Source of the DNA: a virus | Lineage: Duplodnaviria; Heunggongvirae; Uroviricota; Caudoviricetes | Length of the DNA stretch: 26,777 bases | Virus record (IMG/VR): IMGVR_UViG_2778261535_000011 | Location: 1 to 26,777 of that record | Reading direction: 5' to 3' (one strand) | Part shown: positions 2,829-26,777 of the stretch, piece by piece | Layout: each line of letters starts with the position of its first letter | Numbering within the stretch: the stretch's first letter is position 1 | The notes under the pieces: model-generated | Seen by the model: only the letters and a program-made list of their open reading frames with translations | What the model was told of the DNA's origin: nothing | The model's database searches: none | Translations under genes and position numbers: made by a program

Positions 2829-5299
2829 CAGAATCCCCCAACAGTAAGGCGAGGAATAACGGCAAGAACAGACAGCGGCAACGGATCAAGCTGACGGATT
2901 TTTACACGTCCGTTTTTGCCCCAGTTACTGTCCAGTTTCACTTCTACTTTTCCGGTAGCGTCATCAACAGGATCATCGTAGAACTCGAATTCACGCTGTG
3001 GATATTCGTACCATTTACCGCCGGGCGTAGTCGCCCAGATGCCGCGACTGGCATTCACAACCAGAGTAACGGAGGGGATCACCTGTTTTTTGTCCAGCAG
3101 CGTTTCCTGTCCGTTAATGTTGATATCCAGTGTTTCGAATTCAGCAGTTATTGGCAGGCCGATGTGCACTACAGCCCCCGGAGATTCCAGCGTGACGGCA
3201 CCTCCGGAAACCACTTTCTGTGGTTCCACGTTCGCATCAGAGAGAATGTTTACGGTCTGGCCTTCAAGATGAGACAGGCCTCCAAATGTCCGGCGCGCCA
3301 TCTGCCAGTTCGTGGTGGCCGCATTCCTGAGGGATGGCGGGACGTTCCTGTTGGCACGAACCACTACAGCGATATTGCTGGTTACAGAAATAATGTCGCA
3401 ACGTAATTCTTTTGACACTTCATCGCCAGTATCAGGATCAGTTCCGGCATAAGGGAACTGTAGTTGCGCACCGACATCACTACTGGTGAAGTACGCACCA
3501 CCAGAAACACTGATTGTATATTCCGCGCGGTAATCCCATTCACCAGAACCACCAGTGATGGTCATCGTTCTGTCAGACGTATTTCTTCCATCATAGCTAA
3601 GGCCAGAATCAACAAAGAAAGCATCTTCATCGCTGGTAAATAAACGGCTAGACAGTCGCTCTATGTATCTCACTGTTTGCCCGTTAACGGTTCGGTTAAC
3701 GACGAAATACACCGCATCTTCATTGCCTTCGCTGATACTGCATGTGCTTTCATATTTCCCGGTACTGGATTGTGGTGCCCATGCAAAAACCTGCTGATCA
3801 CGCAAATAGGTCATCACCAGTAATTTACCGTCATCACGAATGCAGAAGGCGCTGGAGTAAGGGACAATAGAGAAGCACCAGTCAACAATGCTGTGCTTCT
3901 GAAAAAGATGATTGGCAAGGATAGTAAGGTCGTTCCCCTGATAGCCATCAACATCGAATGAGTAGGCCAGATCACGGACAACACTGCCTTTCTCCTGGAC
4001 GAACAGAGCAATATTCGCCACAGCAATTGGTGGGACGTTGCTTGAGCCATTTGATCCCTGAGAGCTGAATGCAAATGATGATGGGGTTAACACTTTGTTC
4101 TGGTCGCCGGTGATGACGTACTCACCTCCGGAAGTCAGCGCCACCAGCGAACCAACATCAATCAGGTGGCGGATCTCATTAACCTGACGCCCGGCATAGG
4201 TGTAGATAATTCTGTCGTCATCCTGCGTAGGATTGCTTTTGCCAAAATCCTTATAATCCCCAGTACGGCTGGCCCAGATAGTCTGAGGGAACGCAGTCGA
4301 TGCGGCGAAGTAAAGACGTTGTTGATAATAAACAACAGTGCCAGGATAACCATTAACACTGTTCCAGGCATATTTAGCCCATTTATAGCTGGCATTATCC
4401 TCGCCAACGACCTGCGAAGGGATATAGGAAATCACCTCAGCAGTTGCAGTAGTGCCGTTTACAGCAGTGATACGGGCAATGCCAAAACCACTGTGCAGAT
4501 ACTCCCACTCAATGCCAGTATCATCATCACCGGATCCGCCCCAGCCATCCCATGATGTGCCTTCTGTATGCGAAGGGCGCAAAGTACCTGTTTTGCCTGC
4601 TGTAACGGCGCGATAGTAGTTACTGTCTGCACGGCGAATATCGCCAATCGACGTACTCTTACTGGTTTCCCATACCGGCACAGAATCCACTGCAGGCTGT
4701 TCCAGATAGAACAATTTGCCTACCTGCTCCGCGCCAAAAATAGAGGCGCTTGCCGTTAACGTAATTGTCCCGGTGCTGGCGCTGGCATAAACCGTCACTG
4801 ACTCGTCAATATTGATATCTTCAAATGGCCCGTTCTTCGTTACCACATCAACCAGTTGCCAGTTGTCATGCGCATAGCGGCGCAACTCTTTCGGCGGGTA
4901 TGCCGGATGAACCAGCGTAAGCACGTCTGCGCTTTGCGTGAATTTAATTCGGAACAGATCGGCTTCGGTATATGGCGTGGCAATTTCATAAATAACATTG
5001 CTGCTGTTCAGCACCAACGCACCATCTTTGATAACGCGCATGTACTGGTGTCCGAACTCCAGAGCATAAGTCTGAACCGTCGAGAACTGGAACGGGATCA
5101 GACGGCATTTCCGATTTGGGTATTTGGCGGCACCGACAAAACGCGTACCAGGTCGATTCTCAACGCCGCCATACTGCCGCACGATAAAATTATCGCACTT
5201 GCGCAATGCCACCTGGTACTTCGCCATGTCGATACGTCCGTACAACGACGGTCCAATCTCACCACCAGCAAAGCTGGGCTGGATCCAACTGATAGCCAT
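2828..5299 (-). CDS. Tail tubular protein B-like (nozzle), 823 aa
   Basis: Seen: 823-aa ORF coupled to the flanking genes by overlapping stop/start. Inference: size and position directly after a gp11-like protein match the T7 gp11/gp12 pair (196/794 aa). Confidence 0.55.
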   Translation of the reverse strand: MAISWIQPSFAGGEIGPSLYGRIDMAKYQVALRKCDNFIVRQYGGVENRPGTRFVGAAKYPNRKCRLIPFQFSTVQTYALEFGHQYMRVIKDGALVLNSSNVIYEIATPYTEADLFRIKFTQSADVLTLVHPAYPPKELRRYAHDNWQLVDVVTKNGPFEDINIDESVTVYASASTGTITLTASASIFGAEQVGKLFYLEQPAVDSVPVWETSKSTSIGDIRRADSNYYRAVTAGKTGTLRPSHTEGTSWDGWGGSGDDDTGIEWEYLHSGFGIARITAVNGTTATAEVISYIPSQVVGEDNASYKWAKYAWNSVNGYPGTVVYYQQRLYFAASTAFPQTIWASRTGDYKDFGKSNPTQDDDRIIYTYAGRQVNEIRHLIDVGSLVALTSGGEYVITGDQNKVLTPSSFAFSSQGSNGSSNVPPIAVANIALFVQEKGSVVRDLAYSFDVDGYQGNDLTILANHLFQKHSIVDWCFSIVPYSSAFCIRDDGKLLVMTYLRDQQVFAWAPQSSTGKYESTCSISEGNEDAVYFVVNRTVNGQTVRYIERLSSRLFTSDEDAFFVDSGLSYDGRNTSDRTMTITGGSGEWDYRAEYTISVSGGAYFTSSDVGAQLQFPYAGTDPDTGDEVSKELRCDIISVTSNIAVVVRANRNVPPSLRNAATTNWQMARRTFGGLSHLEGQTVNILSDANVEPQKVVSGGAVTLESPGAVVHIGLPITAEFETLDININGQETLLDKKQVIPSVTLVVNASRGIWATTPGGKWYEYPQREFEFYDDPVDDATGKVEVKLDSNWGKNGRVKIRQLDPLPLSVLAVIPRLTVGGF

Positions 5300-5904
5300 C
5301 AGGACAACCTCGCAATGGTAAACTCATCAACCGGTGGCTGTGGTTCCTGTGATTCATTCTGGCTATGCGAGCCAGCACTAAGAATCACGCGATTGTACAT
5401 ATTGAGGGCAAACGTACCGAGGTCTGCATTCCCAGTCAGCGCCATGTTAATAGCTGCCGCAAGACGCCAGGCCAGCGCCTCCATAAAAATGGCATCAAAC
5501 ATGTTCACATCTGTAACGCGAGAGACATACTTGAGCCATGCCTGCGGCTGGTCTGTGTAGATCAATTTTCCTGTTCCGTTGGTGTCTGCACCAACTTCGT
5601 ACTGAACGCGCATTGCTGCTGTTGGATTACGTACACCAGGAAGCATAATTTCAGTAATGCGCAGACAATCGGACGGGTACTGGTACGCATATTCCCAGTC
5701 AGGCGGTGGATTGCTCGTATCTGCAAGCGCCACGCGTTTGGTAGCAAAGTTCCAGTCAAAATCAGAAAGAACAGCATCACGGCAGGCCTCAAAGTGCAGC
5801 GAACATTCCCCCGCTTCCTTGCTGGCTTCCGTCAGGCTGTTAATGCTGCGGCTGTTGCCAATATTGGACAGCGCACGATTGCAGATCTCTACTACAGAGG
5901 CCAT
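5299..5904 (-). CDS. Tail tubular protein A-like (adaptor), 201 aa
   Basis: Seen: 201-aa ORF. The N-terminal pattern (ICNRALSNIG...INSLTE...FDWNF) resembles the T7 gp11 N-terminus as recalled from memory (VNDILASIGEPPVSTLEG...SRGWTF); unverified. Confidence 0.5.
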   Translation of the reverse strand: MASVVEICNRALSNIGNSRSINSLTEASKEAGECSLHFEACRDAVLSDFDWNFATKRVALADTSNPPPDWEYAYQYPSDCLRITEIMLPGVRNPTAAMRVQYEVGADTNGTGKLIYTDQPQAWLKYVSRVTDVNMFDAIFMEALAWRLAAAINMALTGNADLGTFALNMYNRVILSAGSHSQNESQEPQPPVDEFTIARLS

Positions 5905-6233
5905 TACTCCCCCCCATTGCCGTACAGAGTTTCAGCCGCTGATTTTTCTACATCCCCGGAAACAGGAGCGATCGCCATATCAGTGATCTGCAGATCGGCG
6001 CTGCGATTAACACCATCGTCAGTTTCTCTGGCAGACAGGCCTCGAATAACAGCCTTTGCAGTTATCATCACTTCTGTTCCGACGCCCTGAGGTTGCGCCT
6101 TCAGCTTATTCAATGTGTCGTTATTCAGCGTGATGCACAGCCCCCACGGGTATTCATCGCGAGTTCTGGTTTCTCCGCTCTCATCCTGGTAGCTGTCAGT
6201 GCCGGTTTTGAGGTTTACGAGTTCCATATACAC
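5904..6233 (-). CDS. Small virion/connector protein, about 107-109 aa
   Basis: Seen: ORF in the late operon. Two candidate ATGs (6233 and 6227); GGAG is better spaced for 6227. Confidence 0.45.
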   Translation of the reverse strand: MYMELVNLKTGTDSYQDESGETRTRDEYPWGLCITLNNDTLNKLKAQPQGVGTEVMITAKAVIRGLSARETDDGVNRSADLQITDMAIAPVSGDVEKSAAETLYGNGGE

Positions 6234-19996: not shown

Positions 19997-20581
19997 ATGA
20001 AAAGTATCCAGGACGTCCGCAGGCAAAATCTCAACGACTTGATCGACCGTGAATTCAATGGTGTTCAGACGCGGATGGCAGAAAAACTTGGAACTCAGGC
20101 AAATCTGGTAAACCGCTGGGCTCTTGGCAAGAAGGTTATCGGCGACCAGGTTGCACGAAAAATTGAAGCTGCCGCCAATAAACCCCGTAACTGGCTTGAT
20201 ATTGATCGCTCGCTTTCTCAGGAGGGTTTTCAGCCTGTCGGCCCGAGTGATATAGGTCAGCTGGCGGCTCACAACCTGGAACGCTGGATGAGCGAAAGCC
20301 GCGACCTTTCAACGCAGGGAAAACTACACCGCGCATCCGGCGTCGCCCAGGTGACAATCAGCCGCCTGTTAAACAATGAGGTCAGCGTTTCCATTTCCAC
20401 CCTGGAGAATGTTGCATCCGCATTCGGGCGTCACGGCTATGAATTACTGATTCACCCGCACGACCCTGCGACCATCAACTATGATCGCTCGCGCTACGCA
20501 TTGTTACCCGAAACCGAGAAAGCAAAGATCGAAAGTTACATTGAATTTGTCATCAACCAGAACGAAAAAAACAAACAATAA
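19997..20581 (+). CDS. Prophage repressor (CI-like), dual HTH, no LexA/S24 peptidase domain, 194 aa
   Basis: Seen: N-terminal HTH-like segment (QTRMAEKLGTQANLVNRWALGKKVIG) and a second HTH-like segment (ASGVAQVTISRLLNNEVSVSISTLENVASAF); no Ser-Lys dyad or GDSM-type motif in the C-terminus; divergent from the Cro-like gene. Confidence 0.7.
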   Translation: MKSIQDVRRQNLNDLIDREFNGVQTRMAEKLGTQANLVNRWALGKKVIGDQVARKIEAAANKPRNWLDIDRSLSQEGFQPVGPSDIGQLAAHNLERWMSESRDLSTQGKLHRASGVAQVTISRLLNNEVSVSISTLENVASAFGRHGYELLIHPHDPATINYDRSRYALLPETEKAKIESYIEFVINQNEKNKQ

Positions 20582-20602
20582 AATCATATTTTTCAGTAAG
20601 TA

Positions 20603-20629
20603 AGCCGCCTTCTGGCGGCTTTTTTATTG
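20603..20629 (+). terminator. Intrinsic terminator after the repressor gene (AGCCGCC-ttct-GGCGGCT followed by TTTTTTATT)
   Basis: Seen: 7-bp stem and T-run about 20 nt after the repressor stop. Confidence 0.8.
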
Positions 20630-20638
20630 CCTATTCGA

Positions 20639-20715
20639 TTACCTAATGGGTAATTTTTTTAACTCATATCTATTGACACCAAACCAGATACGCATAATTA
20701 TTACCTCAACGGTAA
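20639..20715 (+). promoter_or_regulatory. Early-left (PL-like) promoter region with two perfect operators (20639-20653 and 20701-20715) flanking TTGACA (20673-20678) and TAATTA (20695-20700)
   Basis: Seen: -35 and -10-like hexamers with 16-nt spacing, bracketed by two perfect palindromes, directly upstream of the plus-strand operon. Confidence 0.6.
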
Positions 20716-20734: not shown

Positions 20735-20887
20735 ATGCAGTGGAAAATCATCAACGGTTGGTACTGCGTTACTGCATGCGGATTCATGAGCTGGAAGTTC
20801 CGCACCTTACAGGAAGGCATTAAGTGGGCTTTCGTCAGCAAAGAAGCTCGCGATGTGGCCAACGATAACGAGATATGGGAGGGCTGA
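20735..20887 (+). CDS. Small ORF, 50 aa (first gene of the early-left operon; uncertain)
   Basis: Seen: ATG at 20735 with GAGG about 10 nt upstream; below the ORF-track cutoff. Could be a Kil-like or regulatory peptide; purely positional. Confidence 0.3.
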   Translation: MQWKIINGWYCVTACGFMSWKFRTLQEGIKWAFVSKEARDVANDNEIWEG

Positions 20888-20889
20888 TA

Positions 20890-21189
20890 ATGAACGTTAA
20901 TCAGCAGAAAAATCTTCAAAAAATCATGCTGGCATTCGACAAGGACTACCGCCTGTCAGAACAGCTATATGACCGACAAGTTGAACTGATTGAGAGTATC
21001 CGGCTTCATCAACTGGCATCAACTTTCGACGTTGTAACAGTTAAAGGCGTTCGCCAGGAAGTACTGGAGGCCGCTAAAGACAGCCCTGAGTTCGAAGAAC
21101 TAATGGATGCCTACCGGCGCGAGGCAATGGCAATTATCGCCCGCTGGGATCTGGCTGATCAGATTGATGGGCAGAGGGACGCGGCATGA
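20890..21189 (+). CDS. Hypothetical protein, about 100 aa (Gam-equivalent position)
   Basis: Seen: ATG at 20890 with GGAGGG RBS 7 nt upstream; ATGA overlap with the downstream exonuclease gene. Confidence 0.5.
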   Translation: MNVNQQKNLQKIMLAFDKDYRLSEQLYDRQVELIESIRLHQLASTFDVVTVKGVRQEVLEAAKDSPEFEELMDAYRREAMAIIARWDLADQIDGQRDAA

Positions 21190-22007
21190 ATCCGGGAATT
21201 TATTTCGATATCAGCAACGAGGACTACCACGCCGGTGACGGCGTGAGTAAGTCGCAGCTAGATATGGTGGCTAAGAACCCTGCCCTTCTGAAATGGGTGA
21301 AGGCTGCTCCGGAAGACGAAGAGAAGAAGTCTGCACTGGACATGGGTACTGCTCTGCACTGTCTGCTTCTGGAACCTGGAGAGTTTGACAAACGCTTCAT
21401 CGTTTCACCGAAGTTCGATCGTCGGACAAAACAAGGTAAAGCTGACGAAGAGGCATTTATTCGTGATGTAGCGGATATGGGGATTTCGGTACTTGATGCA
21501 GAGCAGTGGCGAAAACTGGAGCTGATGCGTGATAGCGCAATGGCTCACCCGGCGGCACGCTGGATGTTAGAAGCACCTGGTTACTGCGAAGCATCAATGT
21601 ACTGGAACGATGAAGATACGGGTGAGTTGTGCCGAATTCGTCCAGACAAATGGCTGAAAGAGCACAACGTGATCGTCGACGTGAAAAAGGTTGCAGATAT
21701 GGACCGTTTTGCACGCCACATCGAGGAGTTCCGCTACCACGTGCAGGACGCAATGTACCGCGAAGGCGCAATGAGGGTTACTGGTCAGCCACATGGTTTT
21801 TTCTTTCTTGCCGTGAGCGAAAGCATTGATTGTGGTCGGTATCCGGTACGCGTGTTCGAGCTGGATGCGCCGGATGTCGATGCCGGGCACGCTCTGTTCC
21901 GCCGGGATCTGAATACCTATCACGAATGCCGCATCAACGATGAATGGGGCGGAGTGGAAATTATTAAACGCCCTGACTGGGCACGTAAACAGGATATGTA
22001 CGTATGA
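21186..22007 (+). CDS. Putative recombination exonuclease, PD-(D/E)xK family (RecE-like), 273 aa
   Basis: Seen: motif IRPDKW...VIVDVKKV (D ... D-x-K), translationally coupled (ATGA) to the Bet-like gene. Established: phage annealase genes pair with a 5'-3' exonuclease. Confidence 0.55.
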   Translation: MNPGIYFDISNEDYHAGDGVSKSQLDMVAKNPALLKWVKAAPEDEEKKSALDMGTALHCLLLEPGEFDKRFIVSPKFDRRTKQGKADEEAFIRDVADMGISVLDAEQWRKLELMRDSAMAHPAARWMLEAPGYCEASMYWNDEDTGELCRIRPDKWLKEHNVIVDVKKVADMDRFARHIEEFRYHVQDAMYREGAMRVTGQPHGFFFLAVSESIDCGRYPVRVFELDAPDVDAGHALFRRDLNTYHECRINDEWGGVEIIKRPDWARKQDMYV

Positions 22008-22885
22008 GCAATGATATCGCAATCACATCACAACCAGGCGCAACTGTAGGCACTGCTGCGGCAATCTTCAGCCCCGAGGGCATGAATCAACTGGTGCGTT
22101 TCGCGGAGTTGATGTCACAAAGCAAAGCGACTGTACCGAAACATCTTGAAGGCAAACCTGCCGATTGCCTGGCGGTGACCATGCAGGCGGCACAGTGGGG
22201 AATGAACCCTTTCGCCGTGGCGCAGAAAACGCATGTGGTAAACGGAACGTTAGGCTACGAAGCACAGTTGGTAAACGCGGTCGTATCCTCTTCCAGCCTG
22301 CTGGCGACACGCCTGAATTATCGCTGGAGCGGTGACTGGTCGAATGTTAACGGCAAAACAGATAAATCACCGAATCTGACGGTAACTGTGTCAGCAGTTC
22401 TTAAAGGAGAAGCAGAACCACGTGAGCTTACCATCAGTATGGCGCAAGCAGGAGTGCGTAACTCTCCATTGTGGGAACAGGATCCGCGCCAGCAACTTGC
22501 CTATCTTTGCACGAAACGATGGGCTCGCCTGCACGCTCCTGATGTACTTCTCGGTGTTTACACCCCTGACGAATTACAGGAAACGGCACCGCGCGTTGAG
22601 CGAGACATTACTCCGCAAATGACTACGGCTGCGGGAATGAACAGTCTGATCAACGCTAAATCAGTGAAAAAGCCTGATGAGCAAACGCGTAAAGCGGATA
22701 GCCGTGAGCCAGAAGAAATGCTGATGGCCTTTACCAGCGCAGCGATGAATTACAGCACTGTATCCGAACTGGATAAGGCTTACAAATACATTGCACAAAA
22801 ACTTTCAGATGATGACGAACTGCTGGCAAAAGCCACCGACGTTTACAGCGTTCGTCGGGAAGAATTAAACGAAACATCTATGTAA
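22004..22885 (+). CDS. Single-strand annealing protein, Bet/RecT family, 293 aa
   Basis: Seen: segments GMNPFAVAQKTHVVNGTLGYEAQLVN, SPLWEQDPRQQLAYLCTKRWARL and ERDITPQ align with lambda Bet as recalled (GLNPWTKEIYAFPDKQNGIVPVVGVDGW; GPWQSHPKRMLRHKAMIQCARL; ERDITPV). Confidence 0.75.
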   Translation: MSNDIAITSQPGATVGTAAAIFSPEGMNQLVRFAELMSQSKATVPKHLEGKPADCLAVTMQAAQWGMNPFAVAQKTHVVNGTLGYEAQLVNAVVSSSSLLATRLNYRWSGDWSNVNGKTDKSPNLTVTVSAVLKGEAEPRELTISMAQAGVRNSPLWEQDPRQQLAYLCTKRWARLHAPDVLLGVYTPDELQETAPRVERDITPQMTTAAGMNSLINAKSVKKPDEQTRKADSREPEEMLMAFTSAAMNYSTVSELDKAYKYIAQKLSDDDELLAKATDVYSVRREELNETSM

Positions 22886-22934
22886 CCACCACCGCGGCGC
22901 CACGCGCGCCGCACTGCAACCAAGAGAGGTATTT

Positions 22935-23183
22935 ATGAAAGGTGCATTAGGTAAGAAGGAACTCCTGGCGGTGGTGCCACTGTCATGGAGCACTATCGAC
23001 CGTATGGAGCGCGCAGGGGAATTTCCTAAACGCTGGTATATCACCGATAAACGCTGCGCATGGAACCGTGATGAAGTTGAGCGTTGGCTTGATGAACGTC
23101 AGGCAGCAAGCCCGGCAGAGTTCCAGGGTAAAAAGCCTCCTGTTCAGCAACGTGTATATCGTCCTGTGAGCAACGCTGCATGA
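22935..23183 (+). CDS. AlpA-family HTH regulator / excisionase-like protein, 82 aa
   Basis: Seen: LLAVVPLSWSTIDRMERAGEFPKRWYITDKRCAWNRDEVERWL fits the AlpA/Xis winged-helix pattern as recalled. Excisionase versus transcription factor cannot be told apart here. Confidence 0.65.
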   Translation: MKGALGKKELLAVVPLSWSTIDRMERAGEFPKRWYITDKRCAWNRDEVERWLDERQAASPAEFQGKKPPVQQRVYRPVSNAA

Positions 23184-23292
23184 GTGTGCTGCTAAGGCAC
23201 TGGAGCAAATGGTCAGGATGGTACTTATTCCTGGCCTCTGTTTCAGCATGGCTTTATCTGCTGGCATTAATTTTCAGAGAGGGTTGGATTAA

Positions 23293-23592
23293 GTGAGAAA
23301 GTTAAGCCGACTTGAAAAATATCACATGAACAAGGTTTCAATGCGCAGCCCTTCAAAGGTTGTTGCCGTTACTCCTGCGGCAATAGAGATCGAAAAACGC
23401 TCGATTGAAAGAGAGAAAAAAGGGCAGTTCCGCATTGCCGCCCACCTTTGGCTTCAGTGTATGGATGTTGCTTCTGGTGATGTTGAGCGTGCAAGGATCG
23501 CGGTTCGCAGGGACCAATGTATCACAAAAGGTAACGGCCTTCGCCGTGGCGACTATAGCGGCATAGGATGTTGCGGGGTGGTTTATGAATAA
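23293..23592 (+). CDS. Hypothetical protein (up to 99 aa; start uncertain)
   Basis: Seen: ORF with GTG start at 23293 and alternative ATGs at 23326 and 23341; Arg/Lys-rich. No motif recognised. Confidence 0.4.
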   Translation: MRKLSRLEKYHMNKVSMRSPSKVVAVTPAAIEIEKRSIEREKKGQFRIAAHLWLQCMDVASGDVERARIAVRRDQCITKGNGLRRGDYSGIGCCGVVYE

Positions 23593-23620
23593 TCAAAACA
23601 ATAATATAAAAGGTAATATC

Positions 23621-24688
23621 ATGAGCAAGGTAGGCGATTATTTCTTTGAATTTCCCGCATCACGAGGAACGCAGGGAAGCACTGTAATACTTATGATGAC
23701 AGTACCAGCAAGAGCACTATCGAGAGTATTGGCAACCGACAATACGGGAAGTACCCTTGAACGTTCTCAACGTGAAATTAATCCAACCAGGGTAAAAAAG
23801 TTTTATCAATATTTAGTCAACGCTTACGAGAAAAAGGAACCATTTATTGTTCCACCATTGGTCGGAAATTGTAACTCAGAAATAGAGTTCCATGAGATTG
23901 GAAATACTAATGTCGGTTTAGCTAGATTTCCTATGGATGCAGAAATAAAATTATTTGATGGACAGCATCGTGCTGCAGGATTAGCTGAGTTCTGCCGTAA
24001 TTATGGTGAAACAATTATGATTCCTCTTATGCTTACGCATAACCTTCCTTTGAAGGCGCGTCAGCAGTTCTTTTCTGACATTAATAATAATGTTTCAAAA
24101 CCATCTGCAGCAATTAATATGGCGTATGACGGACGAAACGATGTTGCCCAAGAAATGGTGTCTTTCCTGTCGCAACATGACACTTTTGCAGAAGTCACTG
24201 ACTTCGAGCACAACGTTGTTCCGTCAAAGTCAAACATGTGGGTGAGTTTCAAAGCATTAAGTGATTCAACATCAAAATTTTGTATTCATAATGGAAAAAA
24301 ACTAGAAATTGGTAACATCGAGTCAGTATGGGAATCATGGTTATGTCTTACACAACTAGAAGCAATTCGCCATGGTACAAAGCAATCAGAATACAAAAGA
24401 GAATATATCCAGTTTCATGCAGTGATGATTAACGCTTTTGGTTATGCTGTTCAGCAAATGATGGTTAATCACTCAATAAAAGAAATAATTTCAATGATTG
24501 AAACATTATGTGCAAATACTGACTTCGCAGAAAGAGAGAATTTTTTCCTAATGGATAATTGGGTTGGGATCTGCACGAAAGCAAGCCAGGAAAAACTATC
24601 AGTTATTGCCAATGTAACAGCACAGAAAGCGGCAGCAAACAGGCTGATACAAGCCTTTACCAAAGGAAGTCTGGGAGCAGAACAATGA
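23621..24688 (+). CDS. DGQHR-domain protein (DndB/DpdB-like, ParB/sulfiredoxin fold), 355-367 aa, AT-rich
   Basis: Seen: pentapeptide DGQHR inside KLFDGQHRAAGLAEF; gene markedly more AT-rich than its neighbours; stop overlaps the start of the methyltransferase gene (ATGA at 24685-24688). Start placed at the MSKVGDYFF Met (AAAGG RBS) rather than the poly-Asn ATG at 23585. Established: DGQHR is the signature of the DndB/DpdB family of DNA-modification-associated proteins. Confidence 0.7.
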   Translation: MSKVGDYFFEFPASRGTQGSTVILMMTVPARALSRVLATDNTGSTLERSQREINPTRVKKFYQYLVNAYEKKEPFIVPPLVGNCNSEIEFHEIGNTNVGLARFPMDAEIKLFDGQHRAAGLAEFCRNYGETIMIPLMLTHNLPLKARQQFFSDINNNVSKPSAAINMAYDGRNDVAQEMVSFLSQHDTFAEVTDFEHNVVPSKSNMWVSFKALSDSTSKFCIHNGKKLEIGNIESVWESWLCLTQLEAIRHGTKQSEYKREYIQFHAVMINAFGYAVQQMMVNHSIKEIISMIETLCANTDFAERENFFLMDNWVGICTKASQEKLSVIANVTAQKAAANRLIQAFTKGSLGAEQ

Positions 24689-25332
24689 AAAAATACACAC
24701 TAATCTATGCAGATCCCCCCTGGGTATACCGGGACAAAGCCGCAGATGGTAATCGCGGTGCCGGTTTTAAATATCCGGTTATGAGTGTGCTGGATATCTG
24801 CCGCCTTCCTGTGTGGGATTTGGCCGATGAAAACTGTCTGTTGGCCATGTGGTGGGTGCCAACACAACCACTCGAAGCACTAAAAGTTATTGAAGCCTGG
24901 GGATTCCGTCTGATGACCATGAAGGGCTTCACGTGGATAAAATGTGGTAGTCGACAACCAGATAAACTGGTTATGGGTATGGGACACATGACTCGCGCCA
25001 ATAGTGAAGATTGCCTGTTTGCAGTAAAGGGAAAACTACCTCCGCGCATTAATGCAGGGATCGTTCAGTCATTTACCGCACCGCGGCTTGAGCATTCAAG
25101 AAAACCAGATGTCGTTCGTGAAAAACTTGTGCAATTGTTAGGCGATGTTTCTCGCATTGAACTGTTCGCCCGCCAGTCGTCTCATGGCTTCGATGTTTGG
25201 GGTAATCAGTGCGAAGACCCGGCAGTGCAACTACACCCTGGATACGCATTGGATATTGCCAGATTAACAAATGCATTCAGCAATGCTCCGCTGTCACCAA
25301 CAGACAACCAGGGGCGGGAGCGTGCAGCATGA
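24685..25332 (+). CDS. MT-A70-family N6-adenine DNA methyltransferase, 215 aa
   Basis: Seen: catalytic motif DPPW inside MKKYTLIYADPPWVYRD; GGAG RBS 7 nt upstream; ATGA overlaps at both ends. The track start at 24559 is rejected as an out-of-context extension inside the upstream gene. Confidence 0.8.
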   Translation: MKKYTLIYADPPWVYRDKAADGNRGAGFKYPVMSVLDICRLPVWDLADENCLLAMWWVPTQPLEALKVIEAWGFRLMTMKGFTWIKCGSRQPDKLVMGMGHMTRANSEDCLFAVKGKLPPRINAGIVQSFTAPRLEHSRKPDVVREKLVQLLGDVSRIELFARQSSHGFDVWGNQCEDPAVQLHPGYALDIARLTNAFSNAPLSPTDNQGRERAA

Positions 25333-25523
25333 ACAGGGCATCACCAGCAGATTTAAGGAAATGCCTTGAAACTGCAAACATGCTTGCACACAGCGGGATC
25401 AGGTTTGTTCCAGTTCCCGCTGTCACTGATGCTGAATTTGCAACGCTGTCAGCAATATTCGCAGACAAAATTGAATCACTGGCAGCAGAAGCCGAGATGG
25501 AAGAAAATCAGCAGAATAATTAA
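25329..25523 (+). CDS. Small acidic protein, 64 aa, third gene of the DGQHR/methyltransferase operon
   Basis: Seen: ATG overlapping the methyltransferase stop (ATGA at 25329-25332); acidic C-terminus (AAEAEMEENQQNN). Function unknown. Confidence 0.4.
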   Translation: MNRASPADLRKCLETANMLAHSGIRFVPVPAVTDAEFATLSAIFADKIESLAAEAEMEENQQNN

Positions 25524-25526
25524 ACG

Positions 25527-26777
25527 TTATTCCCCCGCCATCCACTTCTCAAACTTCGACGGGGAGAACGGAATCAGATCCGTATGCTCCCCGTTAATCC
25601 AGGAATCAATCATATCGGCCCACTGCTGCAACATGTAGGCGCGCTGTCTGGCGTATTCCGCTTTGTTATATACGGCGCGCACACCTTTCTGCTCATGTGC
25701 CAGAGCCTTTTCAATCCAGTCTGAAGGATAACCAGCCTCATGCAACAACGTACTGGCTGTACGGCGCATATCGTGTACGGTGAAGTCCTGAATATGCTCA
25801 CCATCTTCATTTATTATTTTCACCGTTCTGTCGATCAGAGAGTTCAGCGCGGCATTAGATAATGGCTTCCGGAAATTGTAACGACCAGGAACCAGATATT
25901 CACTTCCACCAGCGCACATCTGCAACCCGACCAATATATCCTGTGCCTGTTTAGGCAGGTAAATAACGTGCGCCCGGCTTCCCTTCATACGGTCTGAAGG
26001 AATTGTCCATGTCCATTTTTTAAAATCTATTTCATCCCACGTTGCATTGGTGAATTCGCCTTTACGAACCATAGTGATAAGCACCAGCTTTAAAGCCATT
26101 TTCATAGTGCCCATAGCGCCAATGGCATCCAACGTGCGGAAGAACAGGCCAATTTCTTCTGGTGTCAGTGTTCGCTCTCGTGGTTTAAATATGGCGATAG
26201 ACGAAGGTTTAATGTCAGCCGCAGGATTAAACAAACCATGACCACGGTCATTGGCGTGACGGTATACGCTGCTGATGATCTCCCGGGCCTGCACTGCTGT
26301 TGCCCGGCCACCGCGTTCGACAATCCGGTCACACAAATCACGAACCATCGATGTGGTAATTTCAGCCATCATTTTGTTGCCAAGAACCGGAAGTATGTCA
26401 CGGTCGATCACCGCCTGCTTCATTGCGCGGGTACTTTCAGCCAGGATGACGTGTTTCATATAACTGTCGGTATGTACCGCAAATGTCTCGGCACCACGAA
26501 TCTTTTTGATACCGTCACGTTTAGCCGCAGCCGGCGACTGGCCTGCTTTAAGCAGCTTCTTTGCAGCAATCAGTTCTTCCCGCGCTTCTGCCAGGCTGAT
26601 ACCGTCACGCCCATACTGCCCGATTACCAGTGTTTCGCGGCGACCGTTGATACGGTAGTCATAGCGAAACGAGACCGTGCCTGACGTAAGCACAGCTACA
26701 TACAGCCCGTCACGATCGGAGACCTTATACAGTTTGTCCTGCGGCTTGAGGTTTTTTAATTTTGTATCGGTAAGCAC
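25527..26777 (-). CDS. int: Tyrosine integrase, P4-type (N-terminal arm-binding domain); 5' end cut by the window edge
   Basis: Seen: N-terminal LTDTKLKNLKPQDKLYKVSDRDGLYVAVLTSGTVSFRYDYRINGR pattern, C-terminal HDMRRT (HxxR) and a downstream Tyr (VYNKAEY). The first codon in the window is GTG at the very edge, so the true start may lie just outside. Convergent with the plus-strand operon (3-nt gap between stops). Confidence 0.9.
   Translation of the reverse strand: MLTDTKLKNLKPQDKLYKVSDRDGLYVAVLTSGTVSFRYDYRINGRRETLVIGQYGRDGISLAEAREELIAAKKLLKAGQSPAAAKRDGIKKIRGAETFAVHTDSYMKHVILAESTRAMKQAVIDRDILPVLGNKMMAEITTSMVRDLCDRIVERGGRATAVQAREIISSVYRHANDRGHGLFNPAADIKPSSIAIFKPRERTLTPEEIGLFFRTLDAIGAMGTMKMALKLVLITMVRKGEFTNATWDEIDFKKWTWTIPSDRMKGSRAHVIYLPKQAQDILVGLQMCAGGSEYLVPGRYNFRKPLSNAALNSLIDRTVKIINEDGEHIQDFTVHDMRRTASTLLHEAGYPSDWIEKALAHEQKGVRAVYNKAEYARQRAYMLQQWADMIDSWINGEHTDLIPFSPSKFEKWMAGE

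Follow-up and report, generated by a model that had tools for sequence, protein, structure and literature searches.

DpdB is the DGQHR-family ATPase partner of DpdA in 7-deazaguanine DNA modification. The motifs listed for the family are a QR pair, the DGQHR pentapeptide and FxxxN (PMC4619093), and DndB/DGQHR proteins have been claimed to be fusions of ParB with a C-terminal HEPN domain that bears an Rx4-6H motif (PMC3632139). The biochemical role of DndB is still unsettled (PMC10853773); a bacterial DndB-like protein binds both ATP and GTP (PMC12704722). Fusions of the ParB fold to methylases are common in phages (PMC12704722), and the methylases of prophages and plasmids are thought to protect the element at acquisition (PMC4659465, PMC7736820).

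The window, meaning the whole 26,777-nucleotide stretch of DNA that was analysed, is a phiV10/epsilon15-like (Uetakevirus) prophage adjoining guaA. Near its integrase lie a gene of the DGQHR family, an MT-A70 adenine methyltransferase gene and a gene for a small acidic protein, which the original prediction presented as a candidate DNA-modification or restriction-like module whose exact pairing it did not recognise as a described system. We likewise found no description of the pairing in the literature searched: work on DGQHR/DndB-like phage proteins, on leading regions and on phiV10 methyltransferases yielded no study of either the family or the pairing.

The operon and its three terminal genes

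The three-gene region is the integrase-proximal accessory end of an early-left-type operon, which probably starts at a promoter-like site at 20673..20701. No further promoter-like or terminator-like site was found on the plus strand between this site and 25523. phiV10 has a terminator annotated at a relative position equivalent to that of the hairpin at 20602..20621. The features of the region are these:

20602..20621, plus strand, terminator-like hairpin 3' of a repressor-like HTH gene (19997-20581)
20673..20701, plus strand, promoter-like site TTGACA-17-AATTAT, a consensus match only
20875..23183, plus strand, upstream operon genes, the first three linked by ATGA overlaps
from 20875, plus strand, 104-aa ORF, the first gene of this upstream set
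21186-22007, plus strand, PDDEXK/DUF3799 exonuclease
22004-22885, plus strand, RecT
22935-23183, plus strand, AlpA-like HTH protein
23180..23296, plus strand, small membrane-protein ORF of 38 aa, homologous to annotated phiV10 gp35
23293..23592, plus strand, PerC-family gene (PF06069, E 1.5e-06; phrog_868)
23585..23620, plus strand, left insert junction: ancestral methylase ATG(A), then about 30 nt of DUF1317-like DNA
23621..24688, plus strand, DGQHR/DndB-family protein of 355 aa (ORF 23585-24688, 367 aa; likely start 23621)
24685..25332, plus strand, MT-A70-family N6-adenine DNA methyltransferase of 215 aa (PF05063, DPPW)
25329..25523, plus strand, DUF1382 small acidic protein of 64 aa (PF07131)
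25527..26777, minus strand, P4-type tyrosine integrase, convergent with the operon; this prophage end adjoins guaA

The three genes are indeed chained by ATGA overlaps, at 24685-24688 and 25329-25332, as had been noticed. We rejected these overlaps as evidence for a module because 4-nt overlaps run throughout the operon, with further ones at 21186, 22004, 23180 and 23293, so coupling of this kind is uninformative; the 38-aa ORF, for instance, overlaps the AlpA-like gene by ATGA and perC by GTGA.

The start of the DGQHR gene, originally placed at 23585, needs correction. It is most likely the ATG at 23621 (MSKVG...), since the closest homologs begin there and RefSeq uses the same start in a 99.5%-identical genome, and we rejected 23585 in its favour. 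The ribosome-binding site that serves the ATG at 23621, AAAAGG, lies inside 23585..23620. The protein matches the Pfam DndB profile PF14072 (E 2.6e-46; 158.7 bits against a cutoff of 29.1) over profile positions 1-331 of 338 and NCBIfam TIGR03187 at 192.5 bits against a cutoff of 58.85, which agrees with the DGQHR signature and DndB-type family first assigned to it. Its motifs read RSQRE (Q50, R51), FDGQHR (113-117) and FFSDIN (F151...N155); QR, DGQHR and FxxxN are invariant in a 30-sequence alignment, and 82 positions are invariant among family sequences down to about 51% identity. The N-terminal domain has a ParB/Srx fold and the C-terminal half is helical. Pfam matched DndB only, with no recognisable nuclease domain and no HTH domain in the protein, and the helical C-terminal half had no match to a His-Me finger. 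A sequence search with the protein returned no match in the PDB copy used, and no DndB-family structure was detectable by sequence in that copy. PADLOC matched generic DndB and Type II methylase models only, with no system-level match.

The second protein was correctly read as an MT-A70 adenine methyltransferase. It matches the full PF05063 profile (E 5e-22; 79.1 bits against a cutoff of 23.9) and carries its DPPW motif within YADPPW at residues 9-14, and its relatives in the PDB are MT-A70 and METTL3 chains. The phiV10 lineage conserves it as an orphan methylase; it is 97% identical to phiV10 gp33, which holds the same position before the integrase. All 120 of its closest homologs are single-domain proteins with no ParB-fold or other added functional domain. 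The enzyme would most likely self-methylate phage DNA against host restriction, independently of the DGQHR protein; the literature searched held no biochemical characterisation of the target sequence of gp33-type enzymes. Two identities considered for it were dropped: M.EcoGIX is plasmid-borne, single-strand-specific and described without a stated MT-A70 relation, and nothing was found that ties M.EcoGII to the window protein. The third protein matches PF07131 over its full length (E 2e-30; 105.2 bits against a cutoff of 27) and has 10 acidic and 5 basic residues. It is lineage cargo, and sister phages have a NinI phosphatase or other genes instead. The conserved content of a phiV10-type region is perC, the orphan MT-A70 gene, a variable small gene and the integrase.

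Acquisition of the DGQHR gene

In phiV10 the 3' end of perC directly overlaps the start of the methylase gene, and in phiV10 and 16 other phage records perC runs directly into a 97%-identical methylase. The flanks of the window region match these records as two pieces that cover 46-54% of the query and lack the DGQHR gene; query coverage reaches at least 80% in 21 of the 545 E. coli genomes having this region. The insert is about 1.1 kb long and consists of the DGQHR gene and, before it, the 3' end of a DUF1317 gene. Junction alignments place an ATGA at each end of it together with the DUF1317 3' remnant, and about 30 nt of the left junction align to the 3' end of the DUF1317 gene that precedes DGQHR in SPN1S and in lambdoid prophages. 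GC content runs at 35-40% along the insert against 48-52% in the flanks. The DGQHR gene itself has 38.6% GC (31.3% at third codon positions) and uses AGA or AGG for 7 of its 15 Arg codons, whereas GC is 49.4% in the methylase gene and 49-53% in the upstream operon genes. The earlier observation of an AT-rich, AGA-using gene beside a methylase gene of host-like composition is thus borne out, as is the suggestion that the two genes have separate origins, given the perC-methylase order in phiV10 and its relatives and the readable boundaries of the insert.

These comparisons show that the DGQHR gene was acquired horizontally and placed before a methylase that the phage lineage normally carries alone. 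An AT-rich cassette of about 1.1 kb recombined precisely at the methylase start codon, in a minority sub-lineage, and the methylase gained its new ATGA junction upon entry of the cassette. With such a history the three genes are co-transcribed neighbours and not a co-evolved module. A scan in and around the cassette found repeats at chance level only and no candidate operator or parS-like site.

Occurrence with and without methylases

The DGQHR and MT-A70 genes are each also found widely without the other. Lambdoid prophages that carry DGQHR without a nearby methylase occur in 284 of 5,426 E. coli genomes (about 5% of complete genomes), and one prophage that was viewed from its capsid genes to its integrase has no annotated DNA methyltransferase in that span. 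Prophages of Klebsiella and Salmonella also carry DGQHR with no methylase nearby, and the family is present in several isolated phages of both genera. Distant homologs (about 40% identity) are found in 1,055 plasmid records, 878 of them conjugative, where they adjoin RadC, anti-restriction, DUF4942 or ParAB/TrfB-like genes. The gene also assorts independently: three different contexts share an identical DGQHR protein, a single allele group (95-98% identical) is found with a D12 Dam, with MT-A70 or without a methylase, and in one Klebsiella phage backbone the slot after 'HTH_ParB-44aa' holds DGQHR or MT-A70 as alternatives. We are highly confident that DGQHR is an independent mobile gene and that the anatomy and history of the insert are as described above.

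Methylases do recur beside the gene. By raw count, about 13 of about 30 distinct phage contexts have a DNA methylase one or two genes downstream of DGQHR, often joined by 4-nt overlaps, and these methylases span five Pfam families (MT-A70, PF05869 Dam, D12 Dam, N6_N4 and C5). One of the methylase-adjacent contexts is in a Vibrio phage, where the identity of the DGQHR protein is down to 31%. Where a 154-aa or 172-aa gene intervenes, the methylase comes next in every sufficiently long locus of these prophage groups (one contig ends before the next gene), and the methylase family varies among the loci; the 154-aa protein had no match in Pfam or in the phage collection. A scan of species-representative genomes with strict peptide patterns gave 11 loci only, a number too small for statistical treatment. 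The association looks facultative yet non-random, and the recurrence of methylases could reflect functional cooperation instead of a shared neighbourhood. DndB and DpdB work with DNA-modifying enzymes, and phages often have the ParB fold and a methylase fused (PMC12704722); both points count against seeing DGQHR as an independent gene.

The proposal of a dedicated three-gene module expressed at fixed ratio is not supported, since the overlaps are generic, the methylase allele runs without DGQHR, DUF1382 is swapped in sister phages and DGQHR homologs are common with no methylase nearby. Conservation of the trio across prophages fails in the sense of a fixed unit and survives as a facultative combination of DGQHR with a downstream methylase, in the contexts counted above.

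Possible functions and comparison with known systems

Our best guess is that the DGQHR protein is an autonomous, NTP-binding, DNA-modification-related conflict protein. The protein would act alone as an NTP-binding, DNA-associated switch and would serve the mobile element in conflicts over DNA modification. Such conflicts are also the theme of the orphan methylases, Lar-type genes and anti-restriction genes that accompany DGQHR in phage early operons and in plasmid regions with anti-restriction genes. Counter-defence during establishment would be the most likely of such services, although we assign this function only tentatively, at less than even confidence. The explanation as a whole, an independent mobile gene that encodes an autonomous modification-related conflict protein, is one that we favour with moderate confidence. 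A narrower form of it, which strikes us as rather improbable, makes the stand-alone DGQHR proteins of phages and plasmids a so far undescribed class of counter-defence factors. With the help of NTP they would bind the (methylated) DNA of their own element and shield it from restriction. They would be relatives, without the nuclease, of the ParB/DUF262 heads with which SspE, DndI and GmrSD sense modification, and the shielding would cover modification-dependent enzymes to which self-methylation exposes the element. Such shielding would explain why DGQHR lies directly upstream of whichever orphan methylase, from five families, a phage has, why it does as well alone on conjugative plasmids and why it shows no co-evolution with methylases.

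Several other functions have to be weighed against an autonomous conflict protein. DGQHR may be a methylase-agnostic accessory protein or regulator that cooperates with whichever DNA methylase lies downstream, a role that we consider unlikely. It might curb over-methylation in the way that DndB curbs phosphorothioation, or serve as a ParB-like, NTP-dependent DNA loader through which the methylase gains access, as the DpdB ATPase supports DpdA; DGQHR and methylase would then be a split version of the ParB-methylase fusions. The recurrence of five methylase families one or two genes downstream, often with 4-nt overlaps, fits this role, as does the constancy of a methylase after the 154-aa or 172-aa gene even though its family changes. 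Furthermore, DndB is the regulator of a DNA-modification operon (PMC4507180), phages are enriched in proteins that fuse the ParB fold to N6_N4 and Methyltransf_23 methylases, and fusions to MT-A70 are found in archaea (PMC12704722). In a Pseudoalteromonas phage, PAPS-reductase-like and C5-methylase genes surround a gene of DndB type. However, most of the phiV10 lineage runs the same methylase without DGQHR, DGQHR often has no methylase nearby, the alleles of the two do not co-vary, DGQHR and MT-A70 alternate in one slot, and the close MT-A70 homologs are all single-domain. Of the regulator-plus-methylase unit that had been suggested, an obligate pair is not supported; DGQHR does lie beside methylases of five families more often than looks accidental. 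Two-component restriction-modification had also been suggested, in which DGQHR would restrict and MT-A70 would protect self DNA. Adjacency and translational coupling to a methylase, here and in several other contexts, would suit such a system, and the ParB fold is sometimes termed 'nuclease-like', but the protein has no nuclease domain, hundreds of genomes and plasmids carry DGQHR stably in the absence of a methylase, and near-identical DGQHR alleles pair with different methylase families, whose specificities presumably differ. We regard this idea as effectively refuted and its probability as minimal.

The protein might also be a stand-alone defence or exclusion effector against competing elements that protects the lysogen, acting through NTP depletion or nuclease activity like the Osa/FiwA-type proteins of the ParB superfamily. 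Members of this superfamily have been proposed as conflict effectors (PMC10853773), and defence genes share the prophage moron slots in which DGQHR sits (RexAB and SieB close by, and an AbiL-like pair). That the same hot spots hold defence genes also counts against the counter-defence guess. We nevertheless think a defence effector unlikely: no nuclease domain or motif was detected, PADLOC matched a DndB model and no defence effector, the plasmid homologs sit among anti-restriction and establishment genes, and the location in a lytic-phase early operon, downstream of the post-repressor terminator, makes expression in the lysogen doubtful. An NTP-dependent transcriptional silencer of the element's genes, similar to KorB or ParB and possibly working with a small HTH partner, would accord with the report of DndB as an ATP-modulated repressor (PMC4507180), with the TrfB/KorA-related and ParAB/KorB genes that adjoin plasmid homologs, and with the small multi-HTH proteins that phage homologs often precede. 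We find this very unlikely, because the gene travels among unrelated phage backbones with about 30 nt of flank, too little for a portable operator to fit beyond the coding sequence, there are no significant repeats in or around it, and the protein has no detected HTH domain.

The pairing in the window is ordinary, a junction between mosaic pieces in the accessory region of a phage. It is the DGQHR gene family that merits attention, as a highly conserved and common relative of DndB outside the Dnd system that is found repeatedly beside unrelated DNA methylases. With the role of DndB in dispute, a relative that is a single gene and readily cloned is a convenient entry point to the action of DGQHR proteins, and if it is proven to be an anti-restriction or defence factor, this would bear on the spread of plasmids and prophages in Enterobacteriaceae.

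Compared with known systems, the DGQHR protein shares with DndB the PF14072 and TIGR03187 profiles, the QR, DGQHR and FxxxN motifs, a similar length and a ParB/Srx-fold N-terminus, and the window gene, like dndB, is encoded beside a DNA-modifying enzyme. It is not DndB proper: it scores 110.1 bits against the TIGR03233 equivalog cutoff of 328, Salmonella DndB is about 24% identical to it (tblastn), and neither dndCDE nor dndA/iscS is present in the operon or the annotated prophage. The neighbour of DndB is a sulfur-insertion machine whereas that of the window protein is a methyltransferase, and DGQHR of the window type is a single gene on phages and plasmids. DpdB is alike in that it too is ParB-like, belongs to the DGQHR family and serves a DNA-modifying enzyme, but the prophage annotation includes no TGT-like DpdA or other dpd gene, and no DpdB-named NCBIfam model matches. 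The DUF262/GmrSD heads of SspE, DndI and BrxU combine a modification-sensing ParB-like NTPase with an HNH nuclease, while the window protein has no DUF1524/HNH domain, belongs to another Pfam family and carries no implied restriction activity. The fusions of a ParB-CTPase fold to methyltransferases (PMC12704722) likewise bring together, on mobile elements, a ParB-fold module and a methylase for adenine or cytosine, and orphan methylases such as M.EcoGIX have ParB homologs around them in the leading regions of plasmids (PMC7736820); both share with the window an early or establishment location and suspected anti-defence roles. Unlike in the fusions, the window has separate ORFs with a stop codon at 24686-24688 and independent assortment, and its ParB-fold protein, whose C-terminal half is large and helical, falls in the DndB/DGQHR branch. 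The window methylase, for its part, is the same protein as phiV10 gp33 at the same site, with no substantive difference between the two.

Composition and setting of the three genes

The DGQHR gene is independently mobile, horizontally acquired cargo ahead of its lineage's own orphan methylase, and the three overlapping genes that the original prediction read as a candidate DNA-modification or restriction-like module are a mosaic. The ORFs themselves are present, with domain matches to PF14072/TIGR03187, PF05063 and DUF1382:

23585-24688, + strand, DGQHR/DndB-family ORF (Pfam DndB PF14072, E 2.6e-46; NCBIfam TIGR03187)
24685-25332, + strand, MT-A70 methyltransferase (PF05063, E 5e-22; YADPPW motif)
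25329-25523, + strand, DUF1382 protein (10 acidic and 5 basic residues)
20602-20621, terminator-like hairpin after a repressor-like HTH gene
20673-20701, promoter-like site 3' of the hairpin, ahead of the operon

The first ORF scores 192.5 bits against TIGR03187 (cutoff 58.85) in the NCBIfam profile search, and the solved structures closest to the second are MT-A70 and METTL3 chains. The first ORF does open at 23585, but translation likely starts at 23621, because the nearest homologs and the RefSeq annotation of a 99.5%-identical genome begin at the MSKVG methionine; an AAAAGG ribosome-binding site lies ahead of 23621. The predicted contrast in composition holds: the DGQHR gene has 38.6% GC (GC3 31.3%) and AGA or AGG at 7 of 15 Arg codons, versus 49.4% GC in the methylase and 49-53% in upstream genes.

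The whole window is a prophage of the phiV10/epsilon15-like (Uetakevirus) kind, with guaA next to its integration site. The trio ends a plus-strand operon that converges on a P4-type integrase and reads 104-aa ORF, PDDEXK exonuclease, RecT, AlpA-like, 38-aa membrane protein, PerC, DGQHR, MT-A70, DUF1382. Both predicted ATGA overlaps are found, but 4-nt overlaps occur at almost all operon junctions (21186, 22004, 23180, 23293 and the two in the trio), and this coupling is therefore no evidence that the last three genes are a unit. Elsewhere in the window, a tRNA-Arg gene whose TCT anticodon reads AGA lies at 11433-11509 (+); AGA occurs five times in the AT-rich DGQHR insert. Adjoining this tRNA is an ORF at ~11730-12582 (+), listed from a TTG at 11476, with a hydrophobic N-terminus, a long C-terminal coiled coil and no match in Pfam. 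A 'Gp49 family protein' fills the same slot in a 99.5%-related prophage, and the position is probably another exchangeable cargo slot.

Boundaries of the insertion

The original prediction that the pair was assembled from different sources can be read directly from the insert boundaries. The flanks match phiV10 and 16 other phage records at 97-99% identity, but broken into pieces that span 46-54% of the query; in these phages perC directly overlaps the methylase start. Among 5,426 complete E. coli genomes the region is present in 545, only 21 of them at 80% coverage or more. At the left junction the alignment runs through GGTTTATGA, after which phiV10 enters the methylase (ATGACTAAGAAATACACA); in the window some 30 nt and the DGQHR gene follow instead, and the methylase regains its start from a second ATGA at 24685. 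Those 30 nt align to the 3' end of a DUF1317 gene (52 aa) that lies ahead of DGQHR in Salmonella phage SPN1S and E. coli lambdoid prophages, so the donor carried DUF1317-DGQHR and the window retains only the DUF1317 tail. The methylase is 97% identical in protein sequence to phiV10 gp33 and thus did not come in with the insert; it and DUF1382 are already known as phiV10 genes. The DUF1382 position is itself exchangeable, holding a NinI phosphatase in phage PAS61 and two unrelated genes in HEMP4.

Spread and company of DGQHR genes

DGQHR proteins form a large, strongly conserved family: 229 clusters matched in a search at E ≤ 1e-5, and PHROG gives it an entry of its own (phrog_7901). Homologs occupy the integrase-proximal part of early operons in many enterobacterial prophages and occur in isolated phages (the SPN1S group, Klebsiella ST101-KPC2phi6.3). 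Plasmids too carry homologs, of ~40% identity, in 1,055 records (878 conjugative). The four plasmid records examined have them as solitary genes, amid ParAB, TrfB-like, RadC, DUF4942, anti-restriction and orphan-methylase genes.

DGQHR and methylase genes assort independently. The commonest E. coli allele (284 genomes) lies in the order exo-DUF1317-DGQHR-TraR/DksA-DUF551-Eag-xis-int, and one prophage carrying it has no annotated DNA methyltransferase from the capsid genes to the integrase. An identical DGQHR protein occurs in three unrelated contexts, and one allele group (95-98% identical) is found with D12 Dam, with MT-A70 or with neither. ST101-KPC2phi6.3 carries DGQHR after 'HTH_ParB (261 aa)-44 aa' in a Klebsiella phage backbone, a slot where seven other loci have MT-A70; the upstream gene common to both arrangements is 89% identical. 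DGQHR alone, in varied company and as one of the alternatives in a slot together exclude an obligate two-component system; the dedicated three-gene system first proposed is not supported.

Other genes were seen around these slots. In Klebsiella prophages L121-L127, at about 4156-5915 (-), the MT-A70 gene in the 'DGQHR slot' abuts a convergent RloB-like and AAA_21/AAA_15 ATPase pair that, on our reading, resembles an AbiL-type defence system. E. coli NCTC9066 has, in a lambdoid prophage (L136, 15857-17322), a Ser/Thr kinase and PP2C phosphatase pair directly 3' of a cI-like repressor, at the rexAB position of related prophages. Often a second ParB-related protein (HTH_ParB, 261-346 aa) lies directly upstream of the DGQHR/MT-A70 slot in Klebsiella and Salmonella prophages (locus-local coordinates):

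L006, 5216-6004, HTH_ParB protein
L007, 3294-4334, HTH_ParB protein
L016, 2588-3373, HTH_ParB protein
L121, 2588-3373, HTH_ParB protein

Neighbours were called in 100 loci and checked by phmmer and Pfam. Unexpectedly, a DNA methylase follows DGQHR at +1 (mostly with a 4-nt overlap) or +2 in ~13 of ~30 distinct phage contexts: MT-A70 in three size classes, phage Dam (PF05869), D12 Dam (PF02086), N6_N4 (PF01555, sometimes then a C5 methylase) and, beside a Vibrio phage DGQHR protein only 31% identical, C5 (PF00145). Among the other downstream neighbours are dATP/dGTP pyrophosphohydrolase proteins, one of which carries a Lar restriction-alleviation domain in fusion. In two prophage groups a small multi-HTH gene comes after DGQHR, and a methylase of changing family is next in every locus long enough (one contig ends first):

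L035, 5065-5529, multi-HTH protein between DGQHR and methylase
L030, 1729-2247, multi-HTH protein between DGQHR and methylase
L111, L115 and L105, further examples among many prophages

The 154-aa form has no Pfam match and the 172-aa form several weak HTH matches. The 172-aa family also occurs in Shewanella without DGQHR, between PF05869 Dam and a C5 methylase, and adjoins gpA in Yersinia P2-like phages. Pseudoalteromonas phage KB12-38 (L108, 935-5553) carries a DndB-like gene with a PAPS-reductase-domain gene, a C5 DNA methylase and a 'sulfate reductase' gene, possibly a sulfur-type DNA modification cluster carried by the phage.

On a rough rule of thumb, fewer than one in ten genes of the region would have a methylase within two genes, and judged against this the co-localisation looks non-random. 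It is weaker as evidence of partnership because DGQHR and methylase genes both favour the same short accessory stretch before xis/int, and because many of the contexts share ancestry.

Possible roles and relation to DndB

We tentatively favour counter-defence. DGQHR genes keep company with orphan methylases, Lar-type genes and anti-restriction genes, both in the early operons of phages and in plasmid regions with anti-restriction genes. The protein would work alone, as an NTP-binding, DNA-associated factor in conflicts involving DNA modification, and the MT-A70 methylase would most likely shield phage DNA against host restriction, the role usually suggested for methylases of prophages and plasmids (PMC4659465, PMC7736820). 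A less probable reading is an accessory or regulator indifferent to the methylase beside it. Lower again we place a stand-alone defence or exclusion effector. A KorB-like silencer is improbable. Restriction-modification-like pairing with MT-A70, one of the roles originally suggested, is very unlikely, given that the gene cast as restriction arm is stable unprotected and pairs with methylases of different families.

In the AF2 model (pLDDT 81.9) the N-terminal domain is rich in beta structure and the C-terminal half is helical; the DGQHR motif sits where a strand turns into a helix. The model's matches in the viral structure library are DndB-like, GmrSD-N, AIPR and ParB/Spo0J proteins. Pfam detects no nuclease or HTH domain. 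A possible HEPN-type R-x5-H motif (R260...H266), a lead from PMC3632139, has Lys for Arg in many homologs. In an alignment of 30 sequences, down to 51% identity, 82 positions never vary. The invariant stretch NNNVSKPSAAINMAY falls mostly in a loop modelled at low confidence (residues 155-168) and may bind a ligand or DNA. Binding of ATP and GTP via the motif arginine has been reported for a bacterial DndB-like protein (PMC12704722). DndB itself has been reported as a repressor modulated by ATP (PMC4507180); others have argued that it may be an NTPase or nuclease effector (PMC10853773).

RefSeq already annotates the protein as DGQHR, and our literature search found no study on the phage/plasmid branch; screens for anti-defence or defence activity could reasonably include the family. 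With 110 bits against the DndB equivalog, far under the cutoff of 328, this is a DGQHR-family ParB-fold protein and not DndB or DpdB in the strict sense: a DndB relative outside the Dnd system, moving on its own with mobile elements and often found next to methylases.
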